DNA of 64,000 nt from Pseudomonadota bacterium (GTDB lineage Bacteria > Pseudomonadota > Alphaproteobacteria > Micavibrionales > UBA2020): contig JAJZTA010000007.1 of NCBI GenBank assembly GCA_021849295.1, forward strand, positions 64,007-128,006, written 5' to 3'. The notes beneath the pieces are model-generated. The model was not told where the DNA came from. It ran no database searches and worked only from the letters and a program-made list of their open reading frames with translations. The position numbers and the translations under genes were made by a program. Below, piece by piece: positions 21,285 through 59,756 of this stretch. Within the stretch, counting starts at the first letter, position 1. The number at the start of each line of letters is the position of its first letter.

Positions 21285-21438
21285 AACGGCTCTTCCTCTC
21301 CCTCCGGGGGATTGAGACGAGGGTACTATCTATCGCGAAGCTCCCCTCTCCTGAAGGGAGCGGAATAGTCTTGGAGTCCGTCCATAAAGGTCACGCAGGA
21401 GGCGGCGTCAGATTTTGAGCTTGCTTTCGACGGGCTTT

Positions 21439-21897
21439 TTAGATGTCGGCGGAGATGAAGCTTTTTTTTGCCAATTCCTGGGTTAGCAGCGAGGCTATCG
21501 GTTCAGTCGATTTCAGATCCTCTTTTTCGTGAAAGGCGCGCCGGTCCCCTCGCACATGAAATGAATGCTCTTTTCCATCGAGACGGATCACAACGAGAAC
21601 CGGATGTTCCCCTGTTCTGCTGACAAGGTTCCCGGCGTTGGCCAATATTCCTTTTGCATGTTCAAACCGAATCGGAAAGTCATGGGTAATCCCGTCCCGC
21701 TCGAGAGATAAAAACTGTATTTGTTTCATCTTGTCTAAATTATCCAGTAAATCCCGGTTGGTCTCGGCTATTTCAGAGCTTGCCCGATTGCCGCGGCGAT
21801 CCTCTGCCTTGATTTTATACTGAGGAAGGAACTCGCTATCCGGCCGTTCGCTCGATGCTCCAAGATTGATTGAAAGGCTTATCAACGCACTCCGCAC
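21439..21897 (-). CDS. hypothetical protein in lower-GC insert
   Basis: 152-aa ORF with GTG start in a region of visibly lower GC than the flanks. No motif recognised. Confidence 0.4.
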   Translation of the reverse strand: MRSALISLSINLGASSERPDSEFLPQYKIKAEDRRGNRASSEIAETNRDLLDNLDKMKQIQFLSLERDGITHDFPIRFEHAKGILANAGNLVSRTGEHPVLVVIRLDGKEHSFHVRGDRRAFHEKEDLKSTEPIASLLTQELAKKSFISADI

Positions 21898-21967
21898 ATT
21901 GGCTTCAAAGTCGTTGGCTCTGTCGCTCTTAACTGAGCCGGCAGTCGCCAGGCAACCATCGAAAGGA

Positions 21968-22024
21968 GGCTATATCACCGGAGCGAATATCTCGACCAAC
22001 GGCGGGATGCTTATTTCGTTCTGA
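21968..22024 (+). pseudogene. orphan 3' fragment of a phaB-like SDR gene (direct repeat copy B)
   Basis: Encodes 'GYITGANISTNGGMLISF*' against the phaB end 'GYITGANISTNGGLFISF*'. No upstream SDR sequence. Confidence 0.8.
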
Positions 22025-22080
22025 TTTTTTCGTTTGTTATCAAATAGATAATAAATATCCTTGGCCGCCTCTTTCATATT

Positions 22081-22763
22081 ATGTATAATAATGCCATGGG
22101 AACAAGGCAGAAAAATATAGTGACCTCCTTCAACAAGCTCTCGGCGTTCGATTTTTACGATCTGGCGCATATGAAGCCGACCCAGATGCTTGTCGGCATG
22201 CGCGAAGTCGAGGAAAAGCAAAGCCGCCTGCGCAAGGCGATGAAGTCTCCCGACGATTTGAAGAAATACCTGAAGGCGCGCCCGATCCTCGTGGTGATGG
22301 GGCCGGACGACGAAGCCTATATCGTCGACCACCACCATCTGGCGCTGGCCCTGCAGCGCGAAGGCTTCACCGAGGCGCCCATCGAAGTGCTGGGCGATTA
22401 CTCGAAACTCGATCACGACGCGTTCCAGAAAAAGATGCTGGAGAAGCATTACTTCTATCCCTACGACGAGAAAGAAAACACGACCTGAAAGACCTGCCGC
22501 AAACGCTCGACGGCCTGCGCGACGACCCCTACCGCAGCCTCGCGTGGTTCGTGCGTCAGGAGGGCGGGTTCCAGAAGGTGAAGATCCCCTTTGTGGAATT
22601 CCGCTGGGCGAATTATTTCCGCAAGCGCATTCCTTCAGGGGAACTCAAACGTTCATTCGCGGACGCCTGCGTCAAAGCCTACGACATGGCGCAAGACAAG
22701 CGCGCCGCGCATCTGCCCGGCTATATCGGCGCGAAAGTGCCTGCGGGGGCGCCGGAGCTCTAA
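22081..22763 (+). pseudogene. ParB-like nuclease domain protein (PF08857-like), frameshifted
   Basis: ORF 22081-22488 ('MKPTQMLVGMREV', 'YIVDHHHLALAL') continues in another frame as 'KDLPQTLDGLRDDPYRSLAWFVRQEGGFQKVKIPFVEFRWANYF' (22488-22763). The shift lies in GAGAAAGAAAACA around 22470-22488. Confidence 0.7.
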
Positions 22764-22846
22764 TCCTTTAACATTGCGGTATTAAAACGAGTGGAGGCAA
22801 CATAATAGCTATGGTGCTTAAAAGATTTGCAACTATCAGGCGGCGA

Positions 22847-23328
22847 TTAAAATTTATATTGTTGTCGGGATTTTTGTTCAGCAAAACGGCTCTCTCTCTC
22901 TCTTGAATAAAACAAGCCGAAGATAAGGATCGGAAGCAAGAGTATATACGACTGCTTAAAGATTGAGGCCGTAAAAAACGCAATATACAGGATTACTGTT
23001 CCTAAAATCGGCCATATATTCGCACGCGCTATATCCTTATACAGCCATTGTTTGGTTATATGACGATAATACATCCCTTTCAGAACATATAGTGGCGAAT
23101 ACGCTATTAAAGCGAGTAAAGAACTTTCTATAAAATCCTCAGGAAAATTGCGTATGAACGCTGTTAAAAGGTCTTGTATTGAATTGACAGGATAAACACC
23201 GCCGCACACGCATGCATAAGCCGTGATTGGAAAAAATATAACCATTCCGATCAAAGCAGCAAAAAAGAACGTTCTCTGCTTGCCGCAATCTGTCGTTATC
23301 GGACAGCGGTATTGTGAACGATAAAACA

Positions 23329-23329
<1 letters not shown>
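22847..23329 (-). CDS. hypothetical small membrane protein (AT-rich)
   Basis: 160-aa ORF, about 4 hydrophobic helices, markedly AT-rich, GTG start abutting the hemB stop. Weak support. Confidence 0.35.
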
Positions 23330-24757
<1,428 letters not shown>

Positions 24758-24938
24758 GGCCCTTATTCCATAAATAAAAGTTTATTCAGTTTAACATAAC
24801 ATTACAATGTAATATGTCGAGTAAATTTTCAAGGTATTGATTTTAATAAATAATTTTTTAAAAAGCGGTGCGGGACACTATTGCAGCAAATGGGGACATG
24901 GGCTAAAGAGAGGCCTCAACAACAGCAGGAGAGCCCCC

Positions 24939-25241: not shown

Positions 25242-25459
25242 GGTATAAAAAGATATAAAACCGCCAAGCTATTTATAGCACTTGAATTTTATCCACAATA
25301 CCTATATGGTAAGGAGGTTCGAGATCTATCGGTTCTGACTTGTGTGCGGCTCTATACAAGGCTTTCTCCCAAGACAAACGGTTATTCGGATATTGGCTTA
25401 CACAATGGTTGTGTAGGCCTTTTGCACGAAGAGTGCGTTTTCTAAAGGAGGCCAAAAGT

Positions 25460-25746: not shown

Positions 25747-26229
25747 ATGTCGTTTAAAGCCTTCATGGGCGCGCTGTGCGCCGCCGTTCTGTTCTCGCTG
25801 CCCGCGCCCGCGTCCGCCATGACCCTTGGCGCGAAGGCGCCGCCGCTGGTGGCGAAAAGCATGGGCGGCGCCGAGGTCGATATCAACAAGCTGAAAGGCA
25901 AGACGGTCGTCCTCTTCCTGTGGACGACCCAGTGCAAAAGCTGCGTGCAGGACCTCTATGACCTGCGCGACTTCTACAACAAATATCAGGACAAGGGCCT
26001 CGCGGTCATCGCGCTCTCCGCCGATCCGCCGCAGCTGAAGTATATGGTGGAGAACGTCGACGCGCTGGTGGATTATCCGGTCGTCATGGCCGCGGAGGCG
26101 CAGGAAAACGGCTACACCATGCCCGGCCGCTTCCCGCTCATGTACATCATCACCAAGGACGGCAAGCTGCATAGCTTCTACGCCACGATCCCGAAGGGCA
26201 AGGCGCTGTACAAAGCCGTGTTCCCTTGA
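25747..26229 (+). CDS. TlpA-like periplasmic thiol:disulfide oxidoreductase
   Basis: Signal peptide, 'VVLFLWTTQCKSCVQ' CxxC redoxin motif, 160 aa. Confidence 0.8.
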   Translation: MSFKAFMGALCAAVLFSLPAPASAMTLGAKAPPLVAKSMGGAEVDINKLKGKTVVLFLWTTQCKSCVQDLYDLRDFYNKYQDKGLAVIALSADPPQLKYMVENVDALVDYPVVMAAEAQENGYTMPGRFPLMYIITKDGKLHSFYATIPKGKALYKAVFP

Positions 26230-26232
26230 AAG

Positions 26233-27073
26233 ATGGCCCATTTCCCGTTCATCCCCTTTCTCATCGTCGCGATTCCGCTCTGCTGGGCGGCCATAAAAAT
26301 AACCCGCTCCATGGGCCGCGTCGACGCGCCCGTCAAAACGCGGGAGGTCGACGGGTTTGTTTACTATAAAGGCAATTTCCCGCTCGACGATCTGAAGGCG
26401 TCCAAAATCGTTCCGTATCTCGGCGCCATATCCGAAGGTTTTTTTTGAAGGCAGCTACAAGGGCGCGGAGCTCCGTTTCGGCGAAGTCATCTTCTTCGAA
26501 AAGGATCTGGGCAGCCCGTCACGGCTTCAGGCGGCGGCCAACATCGGCCGCGTTTTCTGGGACATGACGCAGTCCGAAAGGAAGCGGCAGAGATACAGGC
26601 TCGACGCCTTTGCCGTCCTCGTGAAGCTGCCCCGGACCAAATTTTACGGCCACACCCTGCTGGAAGAAAACAGGCTGCCCGCCATGAAACGGCTGCAGGA
26701 GCTGGCCCTCGGCCTCAAGCGCGCCAACCTCGAGGACCCGCAATTCGAAAAGGAATACGACGTTTACACGGACGATCAGGTCGAGGCGCGCTATCTGCTC
26801 GATCCCGCCATGATGGAGCGCATCAGGGCGCTGTCGCAGCTTTATCCCGCGGGGCCGCTGTCGATGTCCTACTATCAAAACCATGTTTTGATTCTGATTC
26901 CCGTCGGGTCGAAAAACGAGGATGCCGATCTGGCCAAATTCGCCGCCCGTGCCGGAGACTACGTGAGCAGTGAAGACCTGCGCCGGCAGTGCGATGAGGT
27001 CTTCAAGCTGGTCGATGGTCTGGAGCTGTACCAGCCGCCCGCGCAAGACGATAGGGCCGTTCAGGCGTCCTGA
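26233..27073 (+). pseudogene. DUF3137-like membrane protein, frameshifted at a T8 tract
   Basis: ORF 26233-26448 (TM N-terminus) stops just after T8 (26439-26446). The +1 frame continues as 'EGSYKGAELRFGEVIFFEKD...FEKEYDVYTDDQVEARYLLDPAMMERIRAL' to 27073. T7 would restore a single frame. Confidence 0.65.
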
Positions 27074-27134
27074 TATTAACCCTTAAGTTACCATTTGCCG
27101 CTATACTCGATTATGGTTTTAGGGGGGCAAACCC

Positions 27135-27347
27135 ATGATGGAAGATACGGGGTCGGGAGCGTCTGTGCAGGATCATATTCGCGAACTGGAAAAATACGCC
27201 ACGTGCGGCGACCGCGACAGCATGGCGGCGCCGATGGCCCTGCTGCGGCGCGAGTGGGACAGCCTCTCCGAAGACGAGCAAAAGGACGTCGTGAAACTGG
27301 AATCCATCTTTCTCTCCCTCTCGCACCTGAAGACGGGCTCAGCCTGA
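27135..27347 (+). CDS. small hypothetical protein
   Basis: 70-aa ORF with an AGGGGG RBS-like element upstream and GC3-rich codons. No family recognised. Confidence 0.35.
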   Translation: MMEDTGSGASVQDHIRELEKYATCGDRDSMAAPMALLRREWDSLSEDEQKDVVKLESIFLSLSHLKTGSA

Positions 27348-27446
27348 CGGCGCAAAATGTCGCAAAAGTAAAAACGTCGATCGCCATAAGGCTTCAGGGA
27401 CGGTAATGCGTTTCCAGCATGCTGAAGACCGGCTTCGGCGGTCGTT

Positions 27447-28121
27447 TCAATGGTTGCCGTGGCTCAGGGCTTTCAGCAGCTGGAGCAGGAGGTTGATGAT
27501 GTCGAGGTATATTTTGATGGCGATGTTCATCGCCGCGGGTCAGCCGTTCACGCCGGCGGCGCTCTTTTTCTCCAGCCCGTTGAAGTCCATCACCAGATAG
27601 AGCGTGAAGATGACGACGCCGCCAAAGGCGATGATCCTTTGCTTGGCGGAGGAGAGAGCCTTGAACAGCTGGATGAAGTTGAAAACGATCAGCGCGGAAA
27701 GGGCGATGAACAGCGGCACCGCCAGAAAGTTGAAATCGATCTTCGAATAAATCCCGATCAGCGCGGCGCCGAAGGTGATGCTGGCCGTCAGCGCCAGAGC
27801 CTTTCTGCCCACGCCGTGGTCGACGGCGAGAAAGACATATTCCAGCTCCTAGCCCGTGATGAAGGACCAGATGGAAAACAGCGTGAAGGACGTCGACAGC
27901 GGCTGATGGATGCCCCAGAACAGCAGAAGCAGAAAGACGAGAATATCCGAGATGATCAATCCGTAAAAAACGGGCATGCCGAGCAGCCACCTGTATTGCG
28001 GGTTGAGGTCGCGCAGCTCCCACAGCGCGCCCTGCGGATGCGTCGTCAGTTAGGTGATGGAAAGCTGCGCGCCGAGAATAAAAAACGTCCTGGAAAAGAG
28101 GGTGGGGAACATATGATCCAT
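27447..28121 (-). pseudogene. BAX inhibitor-1/YccA-family membrane protein with three in-frame stop codons
   Basis: One continuous frame (first codon bases all congruent mod 3) from ATG 28119-28121 to TGA 27447-27449. Internal TAA at 28050-28052, TAG at 27849-27851 and TGA at 27540-27542. The C-terminus 'NIAIKIYLDIINLLLQLLKAL' is the BI-1 family hallmark. Confidence 0.8.
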
Positions 28122-28156
28122 GCGGAGCCTTTCCGGCGTTTAAAAAGCGCGGGAAA

Positions 28157-29758
28157 TCACGTCCCCGGCTTTTTGGTCTTGTGGTGCTTGTTGGCGTTGG
28201 CGGCGGCTTGCGGGGCGTAGGGCTTGCCCGTATATCTCCGGCTCAGGTGGTCGAGATAGTATTTGGCGTTCAGCTTCTCGCCCGTGGCGGCGATCAGCAG
28301 CGCGTCGGTGGTCAGCTCCGAGCCCTTGGAGTGGATGTTCTTCTTCAGCCACTCGCGCAGCGGCTTGAAGTTTCCGGTGGCGAGCTCCTTGGGAATCTCC
28401 GGATGCGCCTTGGTGGCGGCGGCGTAAAGCTGCGCCGCGATCATGTTGCCGAGCGCGTAGGCGGGGAAGTAGCCGACGGCGCCGGTCGGCCAGTGGACGT
28501 CCTGCATGCAGCCCTTGGAATTGTCGGGCGGGGCGATGCCGAGCAGCTTTTGCATGCCGTCGTTCCACGCCTTGGGCAGGTCGTCGATGGCAAGCTTGTT
28601 CTCGATCAGCTCTTTTTCGAGCTTGTAGCGCAAGAGGATGTGCGCGGGATAGGTCAGCTCGTCCGCCTCGATGCGGATGAAGGAGGGGTTGACCTGATTG
28701 GCCAGCAGCTGCAGGTTTTCGGCCGAGAGCGCGGGGTCGTTGGGGCGGTTGAACACCTCGCGCGCCTGTTTTTCGAGATACCGGAAGAATTCCGGCTCGT
28801 GCGCGGCGTTGCGCTCCATGATGCCGGACTGGCTTTCATGCACCGCCATGCCCATCGAGGCGCCGACCGGCTCGTAGCGGTGTTTCAAAGGCGTGCCCTG
28901 CTCGTAGAGCGCGTGACCCGCCTCGTGCACGGTGGAATAGACGGCGGAGAGGAAGGAGTTTTCGTCCGAAGCGTCGGTGGTGAAGCGCACGTCCGAGGCG
29001 CTGCCGCCGGTCGAGGGGTGCGCGTCGATGGCGAACATCTTGCCGCGGGTGAAGTCGAACCCCATGGCCTCCGTCAGGCGGCGGCTGAGCTCGGCCTGCT
29101 GCTCCTGCGGGAAGGGGCCTTTGAGCGGCAGAGGCTGCGGGCCTTTCTTTTGCAGGTCGACCGCCTCGCGGATCAGCCCCGGCAGGGCCTTTTCAAGCGC
29201 CGCGAACTCGTGCGCCACGGTGGCGTCGGCGATGTCGGGCGAGAAGCTGTCGAGCAGCGCCTCGTAAACCGAGGCCATGCCGAGCTTCTCCTTGCGAATC
29301 TCCCCGACGGTGCGCATGACGTCGAAGGAATGCTTGTACCAGTCCTTCATTTTCGACCAGTCGCCGGTCTTGCGGAGTTCGGTGTGCAGCTTTTCGCCCT
29401 CGTTGCCGATGCGGGCGATCTCGGTCGCCAGCTCGTCGGAGAGGCCGGCCTGCGCAACCCAGGCGCGGCGCATCAGGGTGAGGTTGCGCTGGTCGATTTT
29501 GGAGAGGTTTTTCTTGTCCTGCTCCGCGTCGTCGAGCCATTCCTCCACTTTCGGGTCTTTAATCAGGTTGTGAGCAACCTCCGCCAAGGCCATGATTTGT
29601 CTGGAGCGGTCTTCCGCGCTGTTTTTCGGCATCACGGTTTCCGCATCCTTGTTGAGGATCGCGGCGGCGTTGTTGATGTCGATGATTTTCGCGAAGCGGT
29701 CTTGCAGTCTTTGATAGGCGCTCTTCGGTGCGGCGGGCATGTCCTGTTTCCTTTTCAT
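28157..29758 (-). CDS. M32 carboxypeptidase (Taq-type)
   Basis: 'HEAGHALYE', 'HESQS', 'IRIEADELTY' motifs. 533 aa from the ATG at 29756-29758 (alternative start 29740). Confidence 0.9.
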   Translation of the reverse strand: MKRKQDMPAAPKSAYQRLQDRFAKIIDINNAAAILNKDAETVMPKNSAEDRSRQIMALAEVAHNLIKDPKVEEWLDDAEQDKKNLSKIDQRNLTLMRRAWVAQAGLSDELATEIARIGNEGEKLHTELRKTGDWSKMKDWYKHSFDVMRTVGEIRKEKLGMASVYEALLDSFSPDIADATVAHEFAALEKALPGLIREAVDLQKKGPQPLPLKGPFPQEQQAELSRRLTEAMGFDFTRGKMFAIDAHPSTGGSASDVRFTTDASDENSFLSAVYSTVHEAGHALYEQGTPLKHRYEPVGASMGMAVHESQSGIMERNAAHEPEFFRYLEKQAREVFNRPNDPALSAENLQLLANQVNPSFIRIEADELTYPAHILLRYKLEKELIENKLAIDDLPKAWNDGMQKLLGIAPPDNSKGCMQDVHWPTGAVGYFPAYALGNMIAAQLYAAATKAHPEIPKELATGNFKPLREWLKKNIHSKGSELTTDALLIAATGEKLNAKYYLDHLSRRYTGKPYAPQAAANANKHHKTKKPGT

Positions 29759-31508: not shown

Positions 31509-31514
31509 CAAGGC

Positions 31515-32285
31515 ATGTTCGCACGCACGCTCATCCGCAGACGCCCCCGCGACGAGGGCGAAAAACCCTTCTGGATCTCGTTCACCGACCTGATGACCGC
31601 CTGCATGACGGTCTTTCTCATCGTCATGGCGGTGACGGTCGTGACGCTGAAGGACGAGATCGCCCGCCTCGAGCGCATCAGCGCCGCCACGCACCGGCGG
31701 CAGGTGGAAATCGGGCGGTTCGCCGACGCGCTGCGGCTCGCCTCGGAGCGCAAATATCCCGACGTGCAGGTGAGCATCATCAAGGACAAGGTGGATATCG
31801 ACTTCGGCACGGACGTCAACTTTCTTTCCGGCTCGTCGGAGATCTCGGACGCGGGCGCGCGCTTTTTGCGCGGCTATCTGCCGATCGTCCTCTCCGCCGC
31901 CGAAACGCCGCTCGGAGAAAAATGGCTGAAGCGCGTAGTGGTCGAGGGCTATACCGACATCGACGGCAGCTATCTTTACAACCTCAACCTCAGCCTCGCG
32001 CGCAGCCGCGCCGTCGTCTGCACGCTCTTTACGCCGGGCGCTTCGCGCCCTGAATCCATATCAGACGCCTTCGCGTCGGGCGAACAGACCATGACGCGCC
32101 ACCAGCTCGAGCAGATGCGCGACCTTTTCCTCGTTGGCGGCTATTCGTTCAATTCCATGATGCCCTCGAAGGCGCAGAGCCGCCGCATCGAGCTGAAACT
32201 CGATTTCTGGCAGCTGGGCGAAAAGGCCGAGGACGCAAAACGCCCGCATCCCGATCTATCCGGCAAGCCTTTCGGGCATTGCTAG
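31515..32285 (+). CDS. ZorB-like MotB/OmpA-family protein
   Basis: 256 aa. 'FWISFTDLMTACMTVFLIVMAV' is a MotB-type TM helix with the conserved Asp. The OmpA-like peptidoglycan-binding motif is 'VVEGYTDIDGSYLYNLNLSLARSRAV'. Starts 6 nt after the ZorA-like stop. Confidence 0.75.
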   Translation: MFARTLIRRRPRDEGEKPFWISFTDLMTACMTVFLIVMAVTVVTLKDEIARLERISAATHRRQVEIGRFADALRLASERKYPDVQVSIIKDKVDIDFGTDVNFLSGSSEISDAGARFLRGYLPIVLSAAETPLGEKWLKRVVVEGYTDIDGSYLYNLNLSLARSRAVVCTLFTPGASRPESISDAFASGEQTMTRHQLEQMRDLFLVGGYSFNSMMPSKAQSRRIELKLDFWQLGEKAEDAKRPHPDLSGKPFGHC

Positions 32286-38927: not shown

Positions 38928-39080
38928 ATGACCGAAGAAAACAAAGAAGGCTGCTGCAACGCCGAAGAGAAAAAAGAAGAAGGCTGCTGCGGCACCGAGA
39001 AAAAAGAATGCACTTGCTTTTCCGAAGAGAAGAAAGAAGGCGAAGCCGGTTCCTGCTCGACGGGTTCCTGCGGCTCCTAA
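38928..39080 (+). CDS. 50-aa Cys-rich acidic/lysine-rich small protein (metallothionein-like candidate)
   Basis: Not in the track (under 60 aa). ATG preceded by AAAAGGAGA. Translation MTEENKEGCCNAEEKKEEGCCGTEKKECTCFSEEKKEGEAGSCSTGSCGS, with 8 Cys. Flanked by a promoter and a terminator. Confidence 0.55.
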   Translation: MTEENKEGCCNAEEKKEEGCCGTEKKECTCFSEEKKEGEAGSCSTGSCGS

Positions 39081-50549: not shown

Positions 50550-51534
50550 GGCGGACAGCGAATCCGCGCCTGCGGCCGCGCCGCTCTATCCGCCGGTCGT
50601 CGCGTTCGACACGGGCCGCCTGAAGGTGGACGGTCTGCACACGCTCTATTACGAACAGTCCGGCAATCCCGAAGGCGCGCCCGTCGTCTTTCTGCACGGC
50701 GGGCCGGGCGCGGGCGCGCAGGACAAGCACCGACAGTTTTTCGATCCCAAGCATTACCGCATCGTCATCTTCGACCAGCGCGGCGCGGGACGCTCGAAGC
50801 CGCACGGCGAACTTAAAAACAACACGACGGCGCATCTGGTCGCCGACATGGAGCGCTTGCGCGAACATCTCGGCATCGCGCGCTGGCATCTGTTCGGCGG
50901 CTCGTGGGGGTCGACGCTCGCGCTCGCCTATGCCATCGCGCATCCGGAGCGCGTGCTGAGCATGACCCTGCGCGGCATCTTCCTGATGCGGCAGAGGGAG
51001 ATCGATTACTTCCTCCACGGCATGCGCAACATCTTCCCCGAAGCGTGGGAGGCGTTCGTCTCGCCGCTCGACGATTCCGAGCGCGAGGACCTTCTGTCGT
51101 CCTACTACAAACGGCTGACGCACGCGGATGAAAAAATCCGTCTGGCCGCGGCGGAGAAATGGAGCGGCTATGAAAGCGCCTGCCTGCGCCTGATTCCGGA
51201 ACCTTACGATCCCGCGCTGGCGGTGCAGACGCCCGAGGCCGCGGCCTACACGCTTTCGATCGCGCGGCTGGAATGCCACTATTTTATCCACAGCCGCTTC
51301 GAGCCCGATGATTATTTATTGAAGAATATCGAGCGCATCCGTCATATTCCTTGCGTGATCGTTCAGGGGCGTTATGACATCGTATGCCCGCCCGTGACGG
51401 CCTACGACCTGCACAAGGCGTGGCCGGAGGCGAAGTTCGTTATCGTGCCCGACGCCGGACATTCCTCCTCCGAGCCGGGAACGGTGCGCGAACTTGTGGC
51501 GGCGACCGACGGTTTCCGTACAATAAAGTCGTAA
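50536..51534 (+). CDS. pip: prolyl aminopeptidase (proline iminopeptidase, S33)
   Basis: 'VVFLHGGPGAG', 'GGSWGSTLAL', 'DAGHS'. Starts at the in-frame ATG 50536, overlapping the previous gene by 14 nt. Confidence 0.9.
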   Translation: MFSRKADSESAPAAAPLYPPVVAFDTGRLKVDGLHTLYYEQSGNPEGAPVVFLHGGPGAGAQDKHRQFFDPKHYRIVIFDQRGAGRSKPHGELKNNTTAHLVADMERLREHLGIARWHLFGGSWGSTLALAYAIAHPERVLSMTLRGIFLMRQREIDYFLHGMRNIFPEAWEAFVSPLDDSEREDLLSSYYKRLTHADEKIRLAAAEKWSGYESACLRLIPEPYDPALAVQTPEAAAYTLSIARLECHYFIHSRFEPDDYLLKNIERIRHIPCVIVQGRYDIVCPPVTAYDLHKAWPEAKFVIVPDAGHSSSEPGTVRELVAATDGFRTIKS

Positions 51535-51637
51535 TGGCAAAGCATAACTTAAACTCATAATTTTCCTTGCCTCGAGAGAGGTCAGGCTCCATAGTAATCA
51601 TTAAGATATCCCTAATTTTTTCTGGAGCCCGTTTCCC

Positions 51638-52612
51638 GTGAACACCAGGATCAAGTCATTCGCCGCCGGAGCTTCGCTATTGTTGTTATGTACAGCAAGC
51701 ACAGTCGCGCTGGCAGACGGCATGCCGTACGGTTTCATCCAGCCGCCCGCGCCGCACATCATTCCCGACACGCCGGACAACACCGGCGCCGTCAACACCA
51801 CCGACACGGTGAGAGAACGGGTCTCGGGCACCGCGCAAGCGCAAACGCAATTGCCCAAGCCGCTGCCGCCGCAACCGCGCGGGAGCGTCATCGAGGTGCA
51901 GCCCAACACGTCGTTCTTCGGCCTCAGCGTCGGCGAATACGATCCGTTCCGCCACGGTGACCGCGCGACGTCCTTCAATGCGGAGCTGCAGCCGGGCCTC
52001 AGGGTGCTCGGCGTGCTGCAGCCGCTGTTCGGCGCGATGGCGACGACCAAGGGCTCGGCGATGGCCTATGCCGGCCTCGGCGTTCCGTTCCACATCACCC
52101 GCCACGTGTTCCTGATGCCGTCGGTCGGTCTCGGCATCTACAGGGCGGGCGGCGGCTATGACCTGAACCGCACGTTCGTCGGGCGTTTCGGCGCGGAGCT
52201 GGCCTACCAGTTCGACAACAAGAGCCGCCTCGGCCTGAACTTCGACGTCATCACCAACGGCCGCTCGACGGCCGCGCGTGACCGCACGGAAATGCTGGCG
52301 CTGACCTACACGCAGCCTTTCAACCTTTTCTCCGGCGAAAGCCGCAACGACATGGCCGCGCCGCAAACCTATAATGCGCCCGTACAACAGGCCGCGCCCG
52401 CGCAAGCGGAGCCGACCGCGCCCGTGACGACGCAGACGATCACCCCCGCCGATCTCGCGCCCGCGCAGGCGTCTGCGCCGACCGCGCTTGCGCCCGCACC
52501 GGCACCCGCCGCCGCGCCCGCAAAGACTTCACCTTCCAACTCATCGGCGTTCCCCGATGCGGTGCCGTCGTCTTTAACTCCTGCAGAAGAGAACACAAAT
52601 GCCTTCCCCTAA
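51638..52612 (+). CDS. PagL/acyloxyacyl-hydrolase-like outer-membrane protein with Pro/Ala-rich tail
   Basis: Signal peptide. '[13 protein letters not shown]...[27 protein letters not shown]...LALTYTQPF' resembles the PagL beta-barrel, but 'VITN' sits where H-x-S-N is expected. Confidence 0.45.
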
Positions 52613-53810
52613 AACACTCGACAGCCTGTCCTGCAAGGACAAGGTCGTTTTGCTGCGCGCCGATCTCAACGTGCCGATGCAAGACGGCGCGGTCACCGAC
52701 ATGACGCGCATCACCCGCCTTGTTCCCACCATCCGCGAGCTTTCAGGCAAGGGCGCGAAGATCGTCCTGCTCTCGCACTTCGGCCGCCCGAGGGGCAAGA
52801 AGGACCCGGCCTTTTCGCTCGCGCCCGTCGGCGCGGCGGTCAGCGACGCGCTGGAAAAGCCGGTGGCCTTCGCCGAAGACTGCGTCGGCGACGTTCCCAA
52901 GGCCGCCATCGCCAAGATGAAGGCGGGCGACGTGCTGCTGCTCGAAAACGTGCGTTTTTATCCTGAAGAGGAAAAGGACGACCTCGGCTTCGCCAAACAA
53001 ATCGCCGCGCTCGGCGACGTGTATGTCAACGACGCGTTCTCCGCCGCGCACCGCGCCCACGCGACGACGCACGCGCTGGCGAAACTGCTGCCCGCCTACG
53101 CGGGGCGGCTGATGGAAGCCGAGCTGTCCGCGCTCTCCAAGGCGCTTGAAAATCCGGAGCGTCCGGTCGTGGCGCTGGTCGGCGGCGCGAAGATTTCCAC
53201 CAAGCTCGATCTGCTGAACAACCTCGTCACCAAAATCGACGTGCTGGTGCTGGGCGGCGGCATGGCCAACACCTTTTTGAACGCGCTCGGCACGAGCGTC
53301 GGCAAATCGCTGTGCGAGAAGGACATGGCGGTACAGGCGCTCGACATCGTGCTGGCGGCGCGGGAACACGATTGCAAAATCTGCCTGCCGATCGACGGCG
53401 TGGTGGCGAAGGAATTCAAGGCGGGCGCTTCATCAGAAACCGTCGGCCTCGACGGCATCCCCGCCGACGGCATGATGCTCGACATCGGCAAAGGCTCGGT
53501 CGCGGTGATCGCCGACCAGCTGCGCATGGCGAAAACGGTGCTGTGGAACGGCCCGCTCGGCGCGTTCGAAATCGCGCCGTTCGATGCGGGCACGACCGCG
53601 CTGGCGAAAATCGTCGCCGAGCTGACGGCGCAAGGCAAGCTCGTCAGCGTCGCGGGCGGGGGCGATACCGTCGCCGCGCTGGCCCACGCGGGCGTGGAGG
53701 ACAAGCTGACCTACGTTTCGACGGCGGGCGGCGCGTTCCTCGAATGGCTCGAAGGCAAAGACCTGCCGGGCGTGCGCGCGCTCAAAGAGAGCGTCGCCAA
53801 GTGCGCCTGA
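52599..53810 (+). CDS. pgk: phosphoglycerate kinase
   Basis: 403 aa with '[10 protein letters not shown]', 'SHFGRP', 'GGGDT'. Confidence 0.97.
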
Positions 53811-53845
53811 AAGGCGCCTCAGCTATCAAGTGCGCCTAAGAGCGG

Positions 53846-54181
53846 TTACGGCTTAACATTGCCGTAGCGGCCGTAGAAATATCCCAAAGCCCTGACGGTT
53901 TCCGCGGCGGTTGCCGGCTGCGATATGCCGCGGTTGTCTTGCTTGATATAGAACTCGCCGCGCTCGTGGGCGAGGTAGAGGCTGCGGTTTTTGTCCTTCA
54001 CGCTGATGATGGTGATTTCGAGTGCGTCGCCGTGCTGGGCGTCGCAGACGTTGAAGGCTTCCTTGTCCGCGAATTTGTCGGCGACATCGTTCCAGATCTC
54101 GCGCAGCGAGGGAAACTTCGGCTTGTCGGCGCAGTCCTGTTCGGCGGCCTGATCGAAAATGGCGGTGAATTTCTCATCCAT
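53846..54181 (-). CDS. hypothetical protein
   Basis: 111 aa from the in-frame ATG at 54179-54181. No family recognised. Confidence 0.45.
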   Translation of the reverse strand: MDEKFTAIFDQAAEQDCADKPKFPSLREIWNDVADKFADKEAFNVCDAQHGDALEITIISVKDKNRSLYLAHERGEFYIKQDNRGISQPATAAETVRALGYFYGRYGNVKP

Positions 54182-54289
54182 GAACGGACTCCGTTTGTTA
54201 AATTCATTTTGCGGAAACATACTACGAATAATGTATTCCGGAAAATAAAGCCTGCGGAAATGCACATAAAATATTGATATATATTGTTT

Positions 54290-54922
54290 TTATTTTTGCG
54301 CGATATGCGCAGCAGACTGTGTCGACGGCCGGTTCCACCACAGGGCGAGGGCGATCCAGACGAGGCCCGTGCCGAGCTCCAGCGCGGCGCAGGCGATCAC
54401 GCCGGTCATGAATATCTCCGGCCATTCGCCCAGCGGCTGCACCGGCCAGTGGTACAGCGTGAAGAGCGTCGCGGCGAACAGCATGGCGCGCCGCGCGCCG
54501 AATCTCTGCCGCAGGGAAAGATAGACCAGCCCGCGAAAACAGGTCTCCTCGGAGAGCGCGACCGCCACGGTCGTCGCCCAGCCGATAAACAGCTCCGCGT
54601 TTGAAAAATCGAAAACGCGCGGGCGGGCGGCGTAATAGGCGCTCCATCCGGCGATGGCCAGCGCCAGAAGCGCGAGCCCGCGCCGCGTATAGCCCTTGTG
54701 CCATCCCCACCGCCGAAAGCCGCCGTTGCGCCGGATCACCGCGACTCAGGCCAGAAAACTCAAAGCCCGCGGCAAGGTCATCCAGAGGTCGTATTTCTGC
54801 CACACTCAGCCCAGACTGTCGGAGAGAAGCAGCATAAGGCTGCGCGCCAGCATGTAGGCAATAGCAATGCCGATCGCGAGCCAGAAGGTGTTTTTACAGG
54901 GCGGGGCTTCCGGTGTGTTCAT
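54290..54922 (-). pseudogene. CPBP-family intramembrane protease (CAAX/Abi-like) with two in-frame TGA codons
   Basis: A single frame from ATG 54920-54922 ('MNTPEAPPCKNTFWLAIGIAIAYML...') passes TGA at 54806-54808 and TGA at 54746-54748, then enters track ORF 54290-54739, which carries 'SEETCFRG' and 'FTLYH' CPBP motifs. Confidence 0.7.
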
Positions 54923-54941
54923 GGGAAAACGCCGCCGTTCC

Positions 54942-55673
54942 TCAGGATTTGTCGAACTTCTTCGCCATCGCGATGACCAGTTCCGTCGCGGCGGCGAGTT
55001 TTTCCCCGTCGGTGGAGCGCAGGACGATGTTGACATGCGGGTTGGCCCTGCCCATCGCGGGGTAGCTGCCGATTTCGACGTCGGGATAGCGGTCTTGAAT
55101 GTCGCCGAGCGCGTCGGCGATCTCGCTTTCCAGCAGCCGGCCGCCGACGGTGCGGCTGAGCACCGGTTTGCCTTTGGCCAGTTCCGGCTCGAGCGAGAGG
55201 AACATCGCCTGCATGATGTCCGGTATGCCCGCCATCACGTAGACGTTTTTGATTTTGAAGCCGGGCGCGGCGGAGACGGAATTTTCGATCAGCGCCGCGC
55301 CTTGGGGGATGCGCGCCATGCGCAGGCGGCCCTCGGTCATCTCCGCGCCCTTGGCGTCGTAGTAGGCCTGCATCAGGGCTTTGGCTTCCGCGTTGATCTC
55401 GAGCTTCGCGTCGAAGGCCTTGGCCATGCAGGCGGCGGTGATGTCGTCGTGCGTCGGGCCGATGCCGCCGGTGGTGAAGACATAGGTATAGGCGGAGGCG
55501 AGCGCGCGCACGGCGGCAACGACGGCGGCCTCGTCGTCCGGCACGACGCGCACCTCGCGCAGCTTGATGCCGCGCGCCGACAAACGCTCCGCGATGAACT
55601 GCGTGTTCACGTCCTGCGTGCGTCCGGAGAGGATCTCGTTGCCGATGATCAGGATGGCGGCGGTGACACTCAT
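54942..55673 (-). CDS. CinA-like molybdopterin-binding domain protein
   Basis: 'AILIIGNEILSGRTQDVN' and 'TTGGIGPTHDDIT' motifs. 243 aa. Confidence 0.85.
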   Translation of the reverse strand: MSVTAAILIIGNEILSGRTQDVNTQFIAERLSARGIKLREVRVVPDDEAAVVAAVRALASAYTYVFTTGGIGPTHDDITAACMAKAFDAKLEINAEAKALMQAYYDAKGAEMTEGRLRMARIPQGAALIENSVSAAPGFKIKNVYVMAGIPDIMQAMFLSLEPELAKGKPVLSRTVGGRLLESEIADALGDIQDRYPDVEIGSYPAMGRANPHVNIVLRSTDGEKLAAATELVIAMAKKFDKS

Positions 55674-55683
55674 TCCGCGGCGC

Positions 55684-56415
55684 TCATTTGCGGGCGGCGA
55701 CGAAGCGCAGGTACGGCGACCAGGAAAGGAATTTTTTCACGACCTTCAGCCCGTGGCGGGCGAGCAGCGCCTCCATGCCCTTTTTGGAGGGATAGCAGAA
55801 ATTCAGCGGCGGCTCGACGAAGCTCCAGCGCGGGAAGTGGGCGGGCAGGCGCATGTGGTTGCCGTCCGGCTCCTGAATGTAGATCCTGCCGCCGGGCTTG
55901 AGCATTTTGACCAGCGCCGCCGTGAAGCCCTCGAGGTCGGGCTGCTCGCAAAAGCCCTCGGTGACGTAAATCATGTCCGCCTGATCGCCTCTGGCGGCGG
56001 CGTTTTGCGCGGTGATATGCTCGACGAGATGCGGCTCGTACTTGTCGCGCGCGAAGACGGCGAAGAATTCGTGCGCGTCGATGCCCTTGGCCTGAAAGCC
56101 GAGATTGCGCGCCGCGAGAACGGCGTAGCCCTGCCGCGCGCAGGCGTCGATAAAGGTTTTGCCCGTGCCGTCGGGGATGGCTTTTTTGATCGCCTGCTGG
56201 TGGCTGTAGATGCGGCCCTGCGGGTTGGGCACGTGGACGATCTCCGGCTGGATCTCGCCGAAGAAATTGTCGAGGTCCTCTTCGGTCGGCCACGGGTTCG
56301 CGATGATCGAGCCGCAGGGCTTGCAGGCGAACAGGCTATAGCCGTTCTTGCTCCCCATCGATAGGCTGTCGAAGGGTTCATGGCAGAACGGGCATTTTCC
56401 GGGCAGATCCGTCAT
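55684..56415 (-). CDS. class I SAM-dependent methyltransferase with N-terminal zinc-ribbon-like Cys pairs
   Basis: 'CPFCHEPF...CKPCGS' followed by a Rossmann-like core ('FIDACARQGY', 'LKPGGRIYI'). Confidence 0.7.
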   Translation of the reverse strand: MTDLPGKCPFCHEPFDSLSMGSKNGYSLFACKPCGSIIANPWPTEEDLDNFFGEIQPEIVHVPNPQGRIYSHQQAIKKAIPDGTGKTFIDACARQGYAVLAARNLGFQAKGIDAHEFFAVFARDKYEPHLVEHITAQNAAARGDQADMIYVTEGFCEQPDLEGFTAALVKMLKPGGRIYIQEPDGNHMRLPAHFPRWSFVEPPLNFCYPSKKGMEALLARHGLKVVKKFLSWSPYLRFVAARK

Positions 56416-59051
56416 TTCAGGCTTTTGGATACAATTTCATACACATCGTTGGAAATATCCTTCTCTGACAGGATGCGTTTTAATTCATTTTCCATCAAGA
56501 GCTTTCTTTCGGCGTCGTATTTCCGCCACTGGCGCAGCGGCGTGAGCAGACGCGCCGCGGTGGAGGGGTTGATGGCGTTGAGCTTGATCACGGTTTCGGC
56601 GAGGATTCTGTAGCCCGCGCCGTCGTCGCGATGGAACCACTTGTGGTTGGCGGCGGAGAAGTTGCCGATCAGCGCGCGCAGGCGGTTGGGGTTTTTATAG
56701 GTAAAATCATGATGTTGCAGCAGACGGGTGACGACTTCCGGCGCGTCGGCGCGGTCGGCGAGGGCTTGCAGGCCGAACCATTTGTCGATCACCAGCGGGT
56801 CTTGCTTCCATGTTTTGTAGAAGTCGTCGAAGGCGTAGAGCGCGGCCTGCGTCTTCGTGTCGCCGAGGATGGCGAGCGCGGCGGTTTTGTCGGTCATGTT
56901 GTGCGCGGATTTATATTGCGCGAGCGCCAGCTCTGCGCCGAGGCTCGTATCCGCTGCGAGGATGTAGCGGAGCGCGATGTTCTTCAGCCTGCGCCTGCCG
57001 ACGGCTTGCGGCGAAACGGAGTAAGCGCCGGCATCGGCGTTTTCCGCGTAGAGACTTTGCAGCTCGGCGAGATATCTCTTGCCGATGCTTGAAACGATCA
57101 ATTTTCGTGCCGCGTGGATGCCGTCGACGTCGATCACGTCTTGCAATTGCGCGAGATAATTCTCCGACGGCAGGGTCAGCGCCTTGGCGATCAGCGCCTT
57201 GTCGGCGGTTTTGTCGGCGATCAGCTTGCCGAAAGCGTCATAGAGCGCCTCGGGCAGGCGGTGCGGCTTGGCGAGGATCAGCCGCTGCAAATAGGTCTGG
57301 CCCGCGTCCCAGCGGTTGAAGCCGTCGGAATCGTGTGCCATGAGGAACAGAAGGTCGCCGTCGGTGAGGGGCGTTTTGATCTTCACCGGCGCCGAGAATT
57401 GCCGCAGGATCGACGGCACGGGCTTTTCCGCTACGTTTTCGAAGAAGAACGTCTCTTGCTTGGCGCGCAGCTCGAGCAGGCGCGTCTTTTCCGGCAGAAT
57501 GTCCTTCCCGTCGTTGCCGAGCAGCCCGACGAGGATCGGCATGTGCATCGGCTGCTTGTTCGTCTGGCCGGCGGTATCGGGAATGTGTTGCGAGAGCGTC
57601 AGCGTGTAGATTTTCTTCTTCCCGTCGTAGCTGTCCTTGGCGGCGATCTCCGGCGTGCCGGCTTGTGAATACCAGAGCTTGAACTGCGAAAGATCGATGC
57701 CTGAGGCGTCCTGCATGCACTGCACGAAGTCGTCGCAGGTGACCGCCTGCCCGTCGAAGCGCTTGAAATACAAATCCGTGCCCTTGCGGTAGTTCTCCGG
57801 CCCCAGCAGCGTGTGCATCATGCGGATGACTTCCGCGCCCTTTTCGTAGACGGTCGGCGTGTAGAAATTGTTGATCTCGATGTAATTGTCGGGACGGATG
57901 GGGTGCGCCATCGGCCCCGCGTCCTCGGCGAACTGCGCGGCGCGCAGGTGATCCACGTCGTCGATGCGGCTGACGCCGGAGGCGTCGGTATGTTTTGCGC
58001 CGGAGGCGTCGGTGTGCCTTTCGTCGGCGGCGTTCATGTCGGCGGAGAAGCTCTGGTCGCGGAAGACGGTCAGGCCTTCCTTCAGCGAGAGCTGAAACCA
58101 GTCGCGGCAGGTGATGCGGTTGCCCGTCCAGTTGTGGAAGTATTCGTGCGCGACGACACCTTCGATGGAGAGAAAGTCGCCGTCGGTCGCGGTCTCGGGC
58201 TTGGCCAGCACGAGGCGGGCGTTGAAGATGTTGAGGCTCTTGTTCTCCATCGCGCCGAAGTTGAAATCGTTGACGGCGACGATGTTGAACAGGTCGAGGT
58301 CGTATTCGCGGCCGTATTTTTCCTCGTCCCATTTCATCGCTTTTTTGAGCGATTCCATCGCGTGGCCGCATTTGTCCTCGTTGCCGCGGTTGACGTGGAT
58401 GTAAAGGTCGACCTTTTTGCCGTTCATGGTTTTGAAGGTGTCGTGCACGGTGGCGAGGTCGCCCGCGACGAGCGCGAAGAGATAGCACGGCTTGGGGAAC
58501 GGGTCGCGCCACACGGCGAAGTGCCGCCCGCCCGCAAGCTCGCCCTTGTCGGTGCAGTTGCCGTTGGAGAGCAGCACGGGGCAGGTTTTCTTGTCCGCCG
58601 CGATGCGCGTGGTGAAGGTCGTCATCACGTCGGGGCGGTCGAGGTAATAGGTGATCTTGCGAAAGCCTTCGGGCTCGCACTGCGTGCAATAGTTGCCGCC
58701 CGAGCTGTAGAGCCCTTCGAGCGCGGTGTTTTTCTCCGGATGGATTTCGGTCACGACTTCGAGCGTGAAGCGGTCGGGCACGTCGGAGATCGTGAGCGTG
58801 TCTTCGTCCGCGGTGAAGCGGTTGGCGGAGAGCTTCTCGCCGTCGAGCGCGACGGATTTCAGCGTCATGTTCTGCCCGTCGAGGATGAGGTCTTTCGCCT
58901 CCGGATTGGCGCGCTTGAATTTTGTTTTGGCGGTGACGGTGGTCACGCCGTCGCGGATGTCGAAATCGAGCGCGATGCTGTCGATCTTGAAATCGGGCTT
59001 TTTGTAATCTTTGAGGAATTTCGGCTGCGGGGCGTTGTCTGAGCGGAACAT
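56412..59051 (-). CDS. pepN: aminopeptidase N (M1)
   Basis: 879 aa with 'GAMEN' and 'HEYFHNWTGNR'. PepN-like throughout. Confidence 0.97.
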   Translation of the reverse strand: MFRSDNAPQPKFLKDYKKPDFKIDSIALDFDIRDGVTTVTAKTKFKRANPEAKDLILDGQNMTLKSVALDGEKLSANRFTADEDTLTISDVPDRFTLEVVTEIHPEKNTALEGLYSSGGNYCTQCEPEGFRKITYYLDRPDVMTTFTTRIAADKKTCPVLLSNGNCTDKGELAGGRHFAVWRDPFPKPCYLFALVAGDLATVHDTFKTMNGKKVDLYIHVNRGNEDKCGHAMESLKKAMKWDEEKYGREYDLDLFNIVAVNDFNFGAMENKSLNIFNARLVLAKPETATDGDFLSIEGVVAHEYFHNWTGNRITCRDWFQLSLKEGLTVFRDQSFSADMNAADERHTDASGAKHTDASGVSRIDDVDHLRAAQFAEDAGPMAHPIRPDNYIEINNFYTPTVYEKGAEVIRMMHTLLGPENYRKGTDLYFKRFDGQAVTCDDFVQCMQDASGIDLSQFKLWYSQAGTPEIAAKDSYDGKKKIYTLTLSQHIPDTAGQTNKQPMHMPILVGLLGNDGKDILPEKTRLLELRAKQETFFFENVAEKPVPSILRQFSAPVKIKTPLTDGDLLFLMAHDSDGFNRWDAGQTYLQRLILAKPHRLPEALYDAFGKLIADKTADKALIAKALTLPSENYLAQLQDVIDVDGIHAARKLIVSSIGKRYLAELQSLYAENADAGAYSVSPQAVGRRRLKNIALRYILAADTSLGAELALAQYKSAHNMTDKTAALAILGDTKTQAALYAFDDFYKTWKQDPLVIDKWFGLQALADRADAPEVVTRLLQHHDFTYKNPNRLRALIGNFSAANHKWFHRDDGAGYRILAETVIKLNAINPSTAARLLTPLRQWRKYDAERKLLMENELKRILSEKDISNDVYEIVSKSLK
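57969..58022 (-). repeat. in-frame 24-bp tandem duplication inside pepN
   Basis: DNA units 57975-57998 and 57999-58022 match at 20 of 24 positions and encode 'HTDASGAK' and 'HTDASGVS'. Confidence 0.8.
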
Positions 59052-59200
59052 ATTTATCTCCGGGGGCTGTCTCCGTTATTCATAAGGGCGGGAATGCGCG
59101 CGTTTGCCCAATCTAGCATAAAACCGGAGTGCTTTAAATCGGGGTTTTGAGGGTAGAATGGGCGGATTCGCGGTGATTTTTAAACCGTAAAGGCATAGGT

Positions 59201-59756
59201 ATGACAGAAAACATAGAACCTCTTTCAAAAGATGAAGAGAACGAACTATTTAGGCTCTACAAATTTTTTATTCAGGAAGCTGGTAGATGTAAGGAAGCAA
59301 AAGCGTATCATGCAGGCTGTATAATGCTTGGAAGTGCTTTGGAAGCAATATTGATTTTGTTTGTCGATCTGTACCGTGAAAAAGTACTGGCAACAGGGAA
59401 ATGTCACAAAAAAAAAGAAGAAAATACTCCCATTATTAGAGTGGGATTTATATCATTTGTTGGGTGTTGCGAAGGCTGCAGGATGGTTGCCCAATGCTCT
59501 TGATCATAATGAGGACGAATGGGATGAAGAAAAGGCAAAGATTGGTGACTATGCACAACTCATTCACGACGTAAGAAATTACGTGCATCCGGGAAGGCAT
59601 ACGAAGGAATATTATAACCTAGAGATAACAGAAGATTTTTATTCTGAGTTGTCAAAGGTGTTGGAATATTGTCAAAAATGGCTCGAGGCATATAATGCAA
59701 AGGCTCTGCTAAAAGCGCTTGAGGAAGGGAAAAGGGACCAGCCTGTGACAGAATAA
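59201..59756 (+). pseudogene. AT-rich hypothetical gene interrupted at an A9 tract
   Basis: ORF 59201-59503 and ORF 59361-59756 overlap in different frames around A9 (59408-59416). An A8 tract would give one ~184-aa protein ('...ATGKCHKKKKKILPLLEWDLYHLLG...LIHDVRNYVHPGR...'). Confidence 0.55.

Follow-up and report, generated by a model that had tools for sequence, protein, structure and literature searches.

The finding of eight interrupted genes within 38 kb of a bacterial genome raises the question of whether the lesions are real and, if so, what kind of gene loss they represent. The DNA considered here, hereafter the window, is a stretch of 64,000 nucleotides from a MAG (2.2 Mb, 58% GC) of an uncultured alphaproteobacterium. 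The lesions are very probably those of genuine, mostly recent pseudogenes in a dispensable part of the genome, with the pseudogene load of the genome as a whole being ordinary.

Interrupted genes in the window

Each of the eight interrupted loci claimed in a preliminary description of the window was found where it had been placed, and all 12 lesions, comprising six frameshifts and six in-frame stops, were located in the sequence. These loci, together with the islet that contains two of them, are as follows:

22081-22763, plus strand: ParB-like nuclease (PF08857) pseudogene; one GAAA unit (4 nt) lost at about 22470-22482
24435-24757, minus strand: small secreted protein pseudogene; 1-nt loss in an A6 run (T6 on the plus strand, 24611-24616)
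26222-28162, unstranded: accessory islet in the blastn synteny map, comprising the DUF3137 gene, a 70-aa ORF and the BI-1 gene
26233-27073, plus strand: DUF3137 (PF11335) membrane protein pseudogene; +1 insertion in a T8 run, 26439-26446
27447-28121, minus strand: Bax-inhibitor-1/YccA (BI-1; PF01027) pseudogene; three in-frame stops and a missing internal segment
36487-37490, minus strand: LpqC-like esterase (Esterase_PHB / Abhydrolase_2) pseudogene; 1-nt loss in a short A run near 37085
37574-38814, plus strand: cation:proton antiporter (PF00999) pseudogene; TAG at 37877-37879 and a 1-nt loss at about 38661
54290-54922, minus strand: CPBP/Rce1-like intramembrane protease (PF02517) pseudogene; TGA at 54806-54808 and TGA at 54746-54748
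59201-59756, plus strand: low-GC (39%) AT-rich gene; +1 insertion in an A9 run, 59408-59416

The minus-strand assignment of the BI-1 and CPBP genes corrects the earlier description. As had been noted there, the functions affected are accessory, membrane and secreted ones, while housekeeping genes, such as rpoD, dnaG, metE, pepN and pgk, are intact. In each of the eight loci, intact homologues that span the break could be aligned, with homology continuing past the frameshift or stop. These were orthologues in the case of the ParB-like, small secreted, antiporter and LpqC-like proteins, database homologues in the case of BI-1, CPBP and the AT-rich gene, and paralogues together with homologues in the case of DUF3137. 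Comparison with related genomes, as had been proposed as a check, revealed open frames across the breaks in the first four of these genes.

The ParB-like gene is 88% identical at the DNA level to an intact orthologue of 229 residues in the sister genome G008, and both of its halves match the Pfam family. Relative to this reference, the lost GAAA unit belongs to GAAAGAAAA, following which frame 0 terminates at 22486-22488. The frameshift reported earlier is real, yet corresponds to the loss of four nucleotides and not to a single-base change. For the small secreted protein, which at 50% GC lies under the first percentile of genes, an intact orthologue of 103 residues that reads AAGCAAA at the site of the lesion is found in sister genome G006, with only 33 bp being retained at this position in G008. 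Both pieces of the LpqC-like gene match Pfam; intact orthologues are present in G011 (63%, with an open frame of 341 residues) and in G004 (78%), and 42 bp are left at the corresponding site in G006. Comparison of the antiporter gene with its intact 417-residue G006 orthologue revealed a TCG to TAG change and the replacement of GCCGGAG by GCCGAG, lesions that were found again independently by tblastn. An intact paralogue of this gene lies at 41079-42302.

For the remaining four genes, the sisters have no such counterpart in the syntenic position. A Pfam match was obtained for the C-terminal piece of DUF3137, and paralogues and homologues align in a single frame over the break (query residues 45-274); neither G006 nor G008 carries an orthologue in the syntenic position. 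In BI-1, the stops are TAA at 28050-28052, TAG at 27849-27851 and TGA at 27540-27542, with the TAA and TGA each standing in place of a near-invariant Trp among 80 homologues of at most 56-60% identity. An internal gap of 16-25 residues, absent from the earlier description, was also detected. Although no BI-1 orthologue was found among 20 relatives, a distant, intact paralogue is encoded elsewhere in the genome (C15:72775). Only six of 61 otherwise invariant BI-1 sites are changed, two of these being stops, and there are no frameshifts; three stops accompanied by so few other changes make for a pattern that is slightly unusual for an old relic. The second stop of the CPBP gene (54746-54748) occupies the position of a Cys that is conserved in homologues, and the segment bearing the third catalytic His motif, a loss likewise not described before, is missing. 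Only three CPBP homologues were identified among 5.8 billion proteins, and none among the 20 relatives. Finally, no Pfam family was matched by the AT-rich gene or by five other small accessory ORFs, although homologues of the former extend across the A9 tract (P0086, 171 residues, 41% identity; P0085, 80%). The corresponding site in G006 contains unrelated DNA.

Considered together, seven of the 12 lesions fall in the BI-1, CPBP and antiporter genes, which bear two or three each. Half of the frameshifts, namely, those of the ParB-like, antiporter and LpqC-like genes, lie outside homopolymers of at least six bases, with the other three lying within such runs (A6, T8 and A9). Whereas the T8 and A9 changes are best read as +1 insertions, single nucleotides were lost from the small secreted protein gene (A6), the LpqC-like gene (about A5 to A4) and the antiporter gene (GCCGGAG to GCCGAG). 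The window yielded no further broken genes. At about 61.5 kb, what had looked like a ninth frameshift proved to be two genes, encoding a PfkB kinase and then an SBP_bac_5 binding protein, with the ORF of the latter having been over-extended, while an apparent double frameshift in secE-nusG arose from a G006 ORF that had been called too long.

Agreement between assemblies

The preliminary description had considered homopolymer indel errors in the assembly to be a possible cause of several frameshifts. Each lesion was, however, recovered in identical sequence in one to four other assemblies. The ENA assembly ERZ27237442 contains a MEGAHIT contig (k141_832871; 126,895 bp) that exactly matches positions 12081-48674 and 51290-62051, a range that includes all 12 lesions, with a single SNP relative to the window at 18861. 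Seven lesions, i.e., the A6 loss of the small secreted protein, the DUF3137 T8 insertion, the three BI-1 stops and the two CPBP stops, recur at 99.95-100% identity across ERZ27237461, the NCBI assembly GCA_027362615.1 and Logan SRR13221995. Specifically, contigs from GCA_027362615.1 and Logan SRR13221995 are 100% identical at the small secreted protein gene, the same T8 run is present in ERZ27237442, ERZ27237461 and Logan SRR13221995, the BI-1 sequence is identical in three other data sets and the CPBP gene is 99.95-100% identical in four other assemblies. The ParB-like, LpqC-like, AT-rich and both antiporter lesions are each seen, again in identical sequence, in only one other assembly (ERZ27237442 for the AT-rich gene), which may share its source reads with the MAG. 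Moreover, 1,806 homopolymers of at least six bases lie in open predicted ORFs across the genome, 32 of them in intact genes of the window, such that the assembly is not error-prone at homopolymers. Judging from these sequence comparisons, assembler artefacts can be excluded for all 12 lesions. The lesions, those in homopolymers included, are genuine, as the earlier description had favored for the nonsense codons, and seven of them recur in separate data sets.

It is accordingly most improbable that the indels, and perhaps the stops as well, are consensus errors originating in assembly or sequencing chemistry. The position of three of the six frameshifts in A6, T8 and A9 runs would suit such errors, as would the normal dN/dS values of four genes with a single lesion, but the same sequence emerged from four other assemblies and different pipelines (MEGAHIT k141, Logan and a third-party MAG), some 1,800 runs of at least six bases within ORFs keep their frame, and the lesions, from which conserved genes are spared (P = 0.014), include the loss of a 4-nt unit, a TCG to TAG change and genes hit several times. 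A further reading, according to which the A6, T8 and A9 frameshifts represent phase-variable tracts or alleles rescued in part of their transcripts by RNA polymerase slippage and not dead genes, is also unlikely. Both mechanisms are known, namely, phase variation through SSRs and slippage during transcription of runs of about nine A or T, and repeat tracts are found inside four of the ORFs (A6, T8, A9 and the GAAA repeat). As is typical of contingency loci, the ORFs that hold the tracts belong to secreted, membrane or foreign genes, and three lesions alter an A or T run of six to nine by a single base, with a change of one base being enough to bring each back into frame. Nonetheless, tract lengths were the same in every assembly and data set compared, with no variation seen, albeit in contigs that hide minority variants; the A6 and T8 runs are, moreover, short for efficient slippage, and the other nine lesions are incompatible with such a mechanism. 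Given that five clearly dead genes lie in the same window, it is more economical to assume plain decay.

Distribution and age of the interrupted genes

All eight broken loci are genes of patchy distribution. Five of the seven loci for which the span could be compared with G006 fall within the 25.5% of the DNA that is without a G006 counterpart (binomial P = 0.014). In the blastn synteny map, the accessory islet at 26222-28162 is reduced to 17 bp in G006, and most of the segment is missing from G008. The dN/dS ratios of the broken genes, including those of the ParB-like (0.23), LpqC-like (0.20) and antiporter (0.26) genes, range from 0.17 to 0.26, whereas the background has its median at 0.156 and its 75th percentile at 0.23. 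Hence, these genes were constrained until recently, and the estimate, another of the checks first proposed, supports recent inactivation.

Two histories can be distinguished. In the ParB-like, LpqC-like, small secreted protein and duplicated antiporter genes, loss is under way across the genus. On the other hand, the BI-1 paralogue, the CPBP protease, the DUF3137 copy and the AT-rich gene were probably foreign acquisitions that were never useful; a BI-1 or CPBP homologue is found in none of the 20 relatives searched, and the DUF3137 copy and the AT-rich gene are missing from the syntenic site in the sisters. Both amount to ordinary decay of genes that are accessory and were probably acquired horizontally, with loss of function being predicted from the broken frames. 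Inactivation proceeded by ordinary mutation, with strand slippage at short repeats (the A6, T8 and A9 runs, the A run of about 5 nt and the GAAA tandem unit) giving rise to most of the frameshifts and single-base substitutions giving rise to the stop codons. A gene once broken would then gather additional lesions, as could be the case for BI-1, CPBP and the antiporter, which hold two or three each, before presumably being deleted, with 0-42 bp being retained at the corresponding sites of sister species. The flexible islets would thus display the textbook order of gene loss, from inactivation through further hits to deletion.

In free-living bacteria, pseudogenes are enriched in accessory genes and in failed horizontally transferred genes that are later deleted. 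The genes considered here resemble these in the few percent of genes affected, in the combination of short-repeat frameshifts and nonsense substitutions, in their patchy or lineage-specific distribution, in the clean deletions seen at matching sites in sisters and in the low dN/dS values indicative of young age. They differ in nothing substantial, apart from the local clustering of eight loci in 38 kb. Accessory-gene pseudogenization of this sort is already known, bacterial pseudogenes reportedly having been addressed by Liu, Harrison, Kunin and Gerstein in 2004 and by Kuo and Ochman in 2010, and the present case raises no new question. In practical terms, the interrupted genes of the MAG can be annotated as pseudogenes without being "corrected," and, as this case shows, exact-protein look-ups in independent assemblies can replace read mapping as a means of excluding assembly error.

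Genome-wide load and stop codons

The preliminary description had favored relaxed selection, as in recent host restriction or small population size, and had proposed a genome-wide pseudogene count, with an ordinary fraction speaking against this view. When the testable genes common to this genome (G000) and G006 were subjected to a homology-based test in both directions, nine of 554 (about 1.6%) were broken here and five of 553 (about 0.9%) in G006 (Fisher P = 0.42), i.e., an ordinary load. The overall share of pseudogenes in the genome is estimated at roughly 2-4%. A reference-free scan for frameshifts and stops, relying on a dicodon Viterbi model, was used for relative comparison only, since its precision is about 50% where checkable; four of 12 of its stop calls were plain gene junctions. 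Five stringent events were observed in the window. The expected number is 1.4 when all 47 calls made across the genome are counted (P = 0.013), or 0.75 on the assumption that about half of them are false (P = 0.001). Multiplication by 35, the number of windows in the genome, raises these values to P = 0.45 and 0.04, respectively, such that the local excess is modest and at best marginal.

That the window samples a genome-wide wave of inactivation under relaxed selection, following host restriction, a bottleneck or small population size, is thus improbable. The scan did return 21 candidate lesions per Mb in this genome versus 12.5 per Mb in G006, and inspection left six to eight plausible nonsense-bearing genes versus none in 1.2 Mb of G006 (P = 0.01-0.04), with a TAG appearing even in a ClC channel sharing 92% identity with its orthologue, and the population looks clonal across data sets (one SNP in more than 40 kb). 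The lesion counts are, however, derived from a scan that is right about half of the time, whereas the homology-based rates are low and alike, the coding fraction in the scan is the same in both genomes (0.822), and housekeeping genes are intact. Nor was any IS expansion visible in the assembly, where repeats of at least 300 bp amount to 12.5 kb (0.56%), an undercount because repeats are collapsed or left out when MAGs are assembled. Massive pseudogenization has taken place in bacteria that became host-restricted recently, such as Mycobacterium leprae, Sodalis glossinidius and Shigella. The window resembles these in its several independent lesions, repeatedly hit genes and affected membrane and accessory functions, yet differs in that about 2-4% of genes are affected here rather than tens of percent, in a coding density equal to that of the sister and in offering no indication of IS expansion or host association. 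Indeed, no sign of host restriction was seen, with the relatives being environmental MAGs labeled Alphaproteobacteria or Rhodospirillales. It is doubtful that this species, unlike G006, has recently entered accelerated inactivation, for example through a clonal bottleneck, with some homopolymer frameshifts being partly expressed by slippage. Were this so, the window would show a free-living environmental alphaproteobacterium early in the course of genome reduction.

Recoding is an unlikely explanation for the in-frame stops. No suppressor tRNA was found among the 35 tRNAs identified in the MAG (88% complete), and the lesions include TAA, TAG and TGA, all of which also serve as normal gene ends (622, 224 and 524 cases, respectively). 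Amber suppression or reassignment, considered because TAG dominates among in-frame stops elsewhere in the genome, was rejected given the same lack of a suppressor tRNA, the fact that TAG is predicted from codon usage to account for 52-54% of nonsense mutations and the non-uniform nature of the residues replaced (Q, E, W and S).

No motif is common to the six stops other than a preceding C, a base expected there because the third codon position is GC-rich. TGA accounts for three of the six stops, as compared to about 14% expected (P = 0.04), an observation that weighs against the pseudogene reading.

Interrupted loci in the window

All eight loci that the preliminary description had listed as broken, through six frameshifts and six in-frame stops, were seen when six-frame translation was followed by comparison of each locus with an intact homologue. 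The window corresponds to C8:64007-128006 of a MAG of 2.21 Mb in 34 contigs (58% GC, 88% complete, 0.45% contaminated), here termed G000, in which ARAGORN detected a permuted tmRNA and 35 tRNAs. Environmental MAGs carrying the labels Alphaproteobacteria, Rhodospirillales or Proteobacteria are the nearest relatives of G000. Two sister genomes present synteny to the window, namely, G006 (~80% nucleotide identity; record SKS4.bin7 NODE_332 is its contig C14) and G008 (~88-90% identity). G004 and G011, used below, are genomes of further relatives.

Lesions of the eight loci and the basis on which each was confirmed
ParB-like gene (PF08857): 4 nt lost, equal to one GAAA unit; intact G008 orthologue
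Small secreted protein: lesion at A6; G006 has AAGCAAA there and encodes 103 aa
DUF3137 gene: lesion at T8; alignments with paralogues and with a G008 homologue continue through the break in one frame
BI-1 (PF01027), minus strand: TAA, TAG and TGA in frame; TAA and TGA at near-invariant Trp
LpqC-like esterase: loss of a single base within a short A tract; G011 (63%) and G004 (78%) carry intact orthologues
Antiporter (PF00999): TCG changed to TAG, plus GCCGGAG shortened to GCCGAG; intact 417-aa G006 orthologue
CPBP (PF02517), minus strand: two TGA codons, one at a conserved Cys; homologue comparison
AT-rich gene (39% GC): lesion at A9; alignment with a 171-aa homologue runs through the tract

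Comparison with homologues also revealed that BI-1 lacks a variable internal segment and that CPBP, for which only three homologues were found among 5.8 billion proteins, is without the segment bearing the third His motif. The AT-rich gene matched no Pfam family. Seven of the 12 lesions are concentrated in three genes, and runs of at least six bases are absent at three of the six frameshifts. No further broken genes were found in the window beyond the eight loci; two apparent extra cases were rejected as artefacts of ORF calls.

Assembly error, recoding and rescue

Homopolymer errors in the assembly had been offered as one source of the frameshifts, three of which lie at the A6, T8 and A9 tracts. 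Exact protein fragments were looked up in other public assemblies. Contig k141_832871 (126,895 bp) of ENA ERZ27237442 proved identical to the window across 12081-48674 and 51290-62051 except for one SNP, and contains all 12 lesions. Seven of these (the A6 of the small protein, the T8 of DUF3137, the three BI-1 stops and the two CPBP stops) are repeated at 99.95-100% identity in contigs of ERZ27237461, NCBI GCA_027362615.1 and Logan SRR13221995. The remaining five, in the ParB-like, LpqC-like and AT-rich genes and, twice, in the antiporter gene, have support from one other assembly only, and that assembly may have reads in common with the MAG. The k141_ contig names suggest short-read MEGAHIT assemblies. 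Genome-wide, 1,806 homopolymers of at least six bases lie within open ORFs, so runs are not, as a rule, miscounted in the assembly. Moreover, five of the seven loci in the span comparable with G006 fall in the 25.5% of the DNA without an equivalent in G006 (P = 0.014). Given the recurrence of the lesions, the frameshifts outside runs of at least six bases, the genes hit more than once and this placement, the lesions are unlike random consensus errors. Homopolymer miscounting is very unlikely as the cause of the frameshifts; the original observation holds, and the lesions are genuine. The SNP, at window position 18861 (G against A), is the sole difference from the second assembly over >50 kb, which suggests that the population is nearly clonal across data sets.

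The stops in the lesions include all three codons, TAA, TAG and TGA, and no suppressor tRNA was found among the 35 tRNAs detected by ARAGORN in this 88% complete MAG. Genes in the genome end in TAA (622), TGA (524) or TAG (224). TAG is over-represented among the in-frame stops found in the rest of the genome; this agrees with codon usage, which predicts TAG for 52-54% of nonsense mutations. The T8 and A9 frameshifts may be partly rescued through transcriptional slippage or variation in tract length; tract lengths are, however, the same in all assemblies examined.

Genes affected and age of the lesions

None of the eight broken genes is conserved across the genus, and the same sites in sister genomes are clean gaps. 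The region spanning 26222-28162 (DUF3137 and BI-1) is represented by 17 bp in G006 and the LpqC-like gene by 42 bp, while in G008 the DUF3137 site measures 0 bp and that of the small secreted protein 33 bp. No orthologues of BI-1 or CPBP were found in 20 relatives; the closest BI-1 homologues (56-60% identical) come from unrelated environmental bacteria. The GC content of the AT-rich gene and of the small protein gene is below the first percentile of genes. BI-1, CPBP, DUF3137 and the AT-rich gene look like acquisitions that decayed. The LpqC-like and ParB-like genes, being intact in some sisters, are ancestral genes under loss. Since intact paralogues of BI-1 (on contig C15) and of the antiporter (at 41079-42302) are retained, redundancy is plausible. 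As previously described, housekeeping genes are intact, with rpoD, dnaG, metE, pepN and pgk being full length and encoding complete domain sets.

Relative to intact orthologues, dN/dS values of 0.23 (ParB-like), 0.26 (antiporter), 0.17 (small secreted protein) and 0.20 (LpqC-like esterase) were obtained, as compared to a background of 482 G000-G006 gene pairs whose median, 75th percentile and 90th percentile were 0.156, 0.23 and 0.35, respectively. These low values indicate that purifying selection acted on the four genes during most of the period that followed the species split, and that their inactivation is recent. BI-1 differs at six of 61 otherwise invariant positions, two of the six being stops.

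Other features noted in the window and in DUF3137 copies were:
29922-32285 (+): 528-aa ZorA-like protein (PF28082), then one of 256 aa that gives a faint OmpA-like match; both intact, with 68-72% amino acid identity in G006; the pair looks like Zorya-type defence genes
38928-39080 (+): 50-aa Cys-rich, Glu/Lys-rich ORF (MTEENKEGCCNAEEKKEEGCC...) directly downstream of the broken antiporter gene; G006 carries a comparable ORF at this position; may be metallothionein-like
21285-23340: low-GC patches (39-49%) between phaB and hemB, where G008 content differs
21439-21897 (-), 152 aa, and 22847-23329 (-), 160 aa: ORFs in these patches without a Pfam family, the latter product resembling a membrane protein
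C23:64037-66456 (-): three tandem DUF3137 copies, one with an in-frame TAG
C27:151193-151810 (+): another DUF3137 copy, the family having several members in this genome

Genome-wide load

Reciprocal tblastn of predicted proteins was performed against 1.2 Mb of G006, with loci deemed credible being those left after removal of N-terminal extension artefacts. G006 proteins flagged 18 of 554 testable loci in G000 (~9 credible; 1.6%) and G000 proteins flagged 12 of 553 in G006 (~5 credible; 0.9%), with no difference between the two rates (Fisher P = 0.42). A dicodon Viterbi scan that uses no reference, about half of whose calls are false where checkable, returned 47 stringent events in G000 (21 per Mb) and 15 in G006 (12.5 per Mb), each at a coding fraction of 0.822. 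As the scan finds five of the eight window loci and ~55% of the credible loci from the G006 comparison, these recovery and false-call rates translate into roughly 35-60 broken loci in the genome, or ~2-4% of genes. Five stringent events fall in the window itself, where 0.75-1.4 would be expected (P = 0.001-0.013), an excess that falls to P 0.04-0.45 once the 35 windows of the genome are allowed for. Repeated DNA, which MAGs under-represent, makes up only 0.56% of the assembly. Plausible nonsense cases in the scan numbered 6-8 in G000 versus 0 in 1.2 Mb of G006 (P = 0.01-0.04); because the homology test gave five loci versus three, this is only a weak hint that nonsense mutations are somewhat more numerous in G000.

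The genome-wide pseudogene load is thus a few percent, which is ordinary. Of the earlier proposal, genuine inactivation is supported; lineage-wide relaxed selection or host restriction is not, given this load and rates that are not distinguishable from those of the sister genome, and nothing points to host restriction. In these flexible islets, accessory and probably foreign genes have undergone recent decay of an ordinary kind.

Three interrupted genes were also noted outside the window. A ClC-type chloride channel gene at C13:83894-85696 (-) (~600 aa, 92% identical to the G006 orthologue) carries one in-frame TAG at Gln174, the flanks of which are 100% conserved, and was therefore inactivated very recently. 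In a chemotaxis-receptor-like protein on C13, a TAG at 16465 stands where the protein's own second repeat has Gln, and in an autotransporter on C26, a TAG at 22269 takes the position of a conserved Trp where the beta-domain begins.
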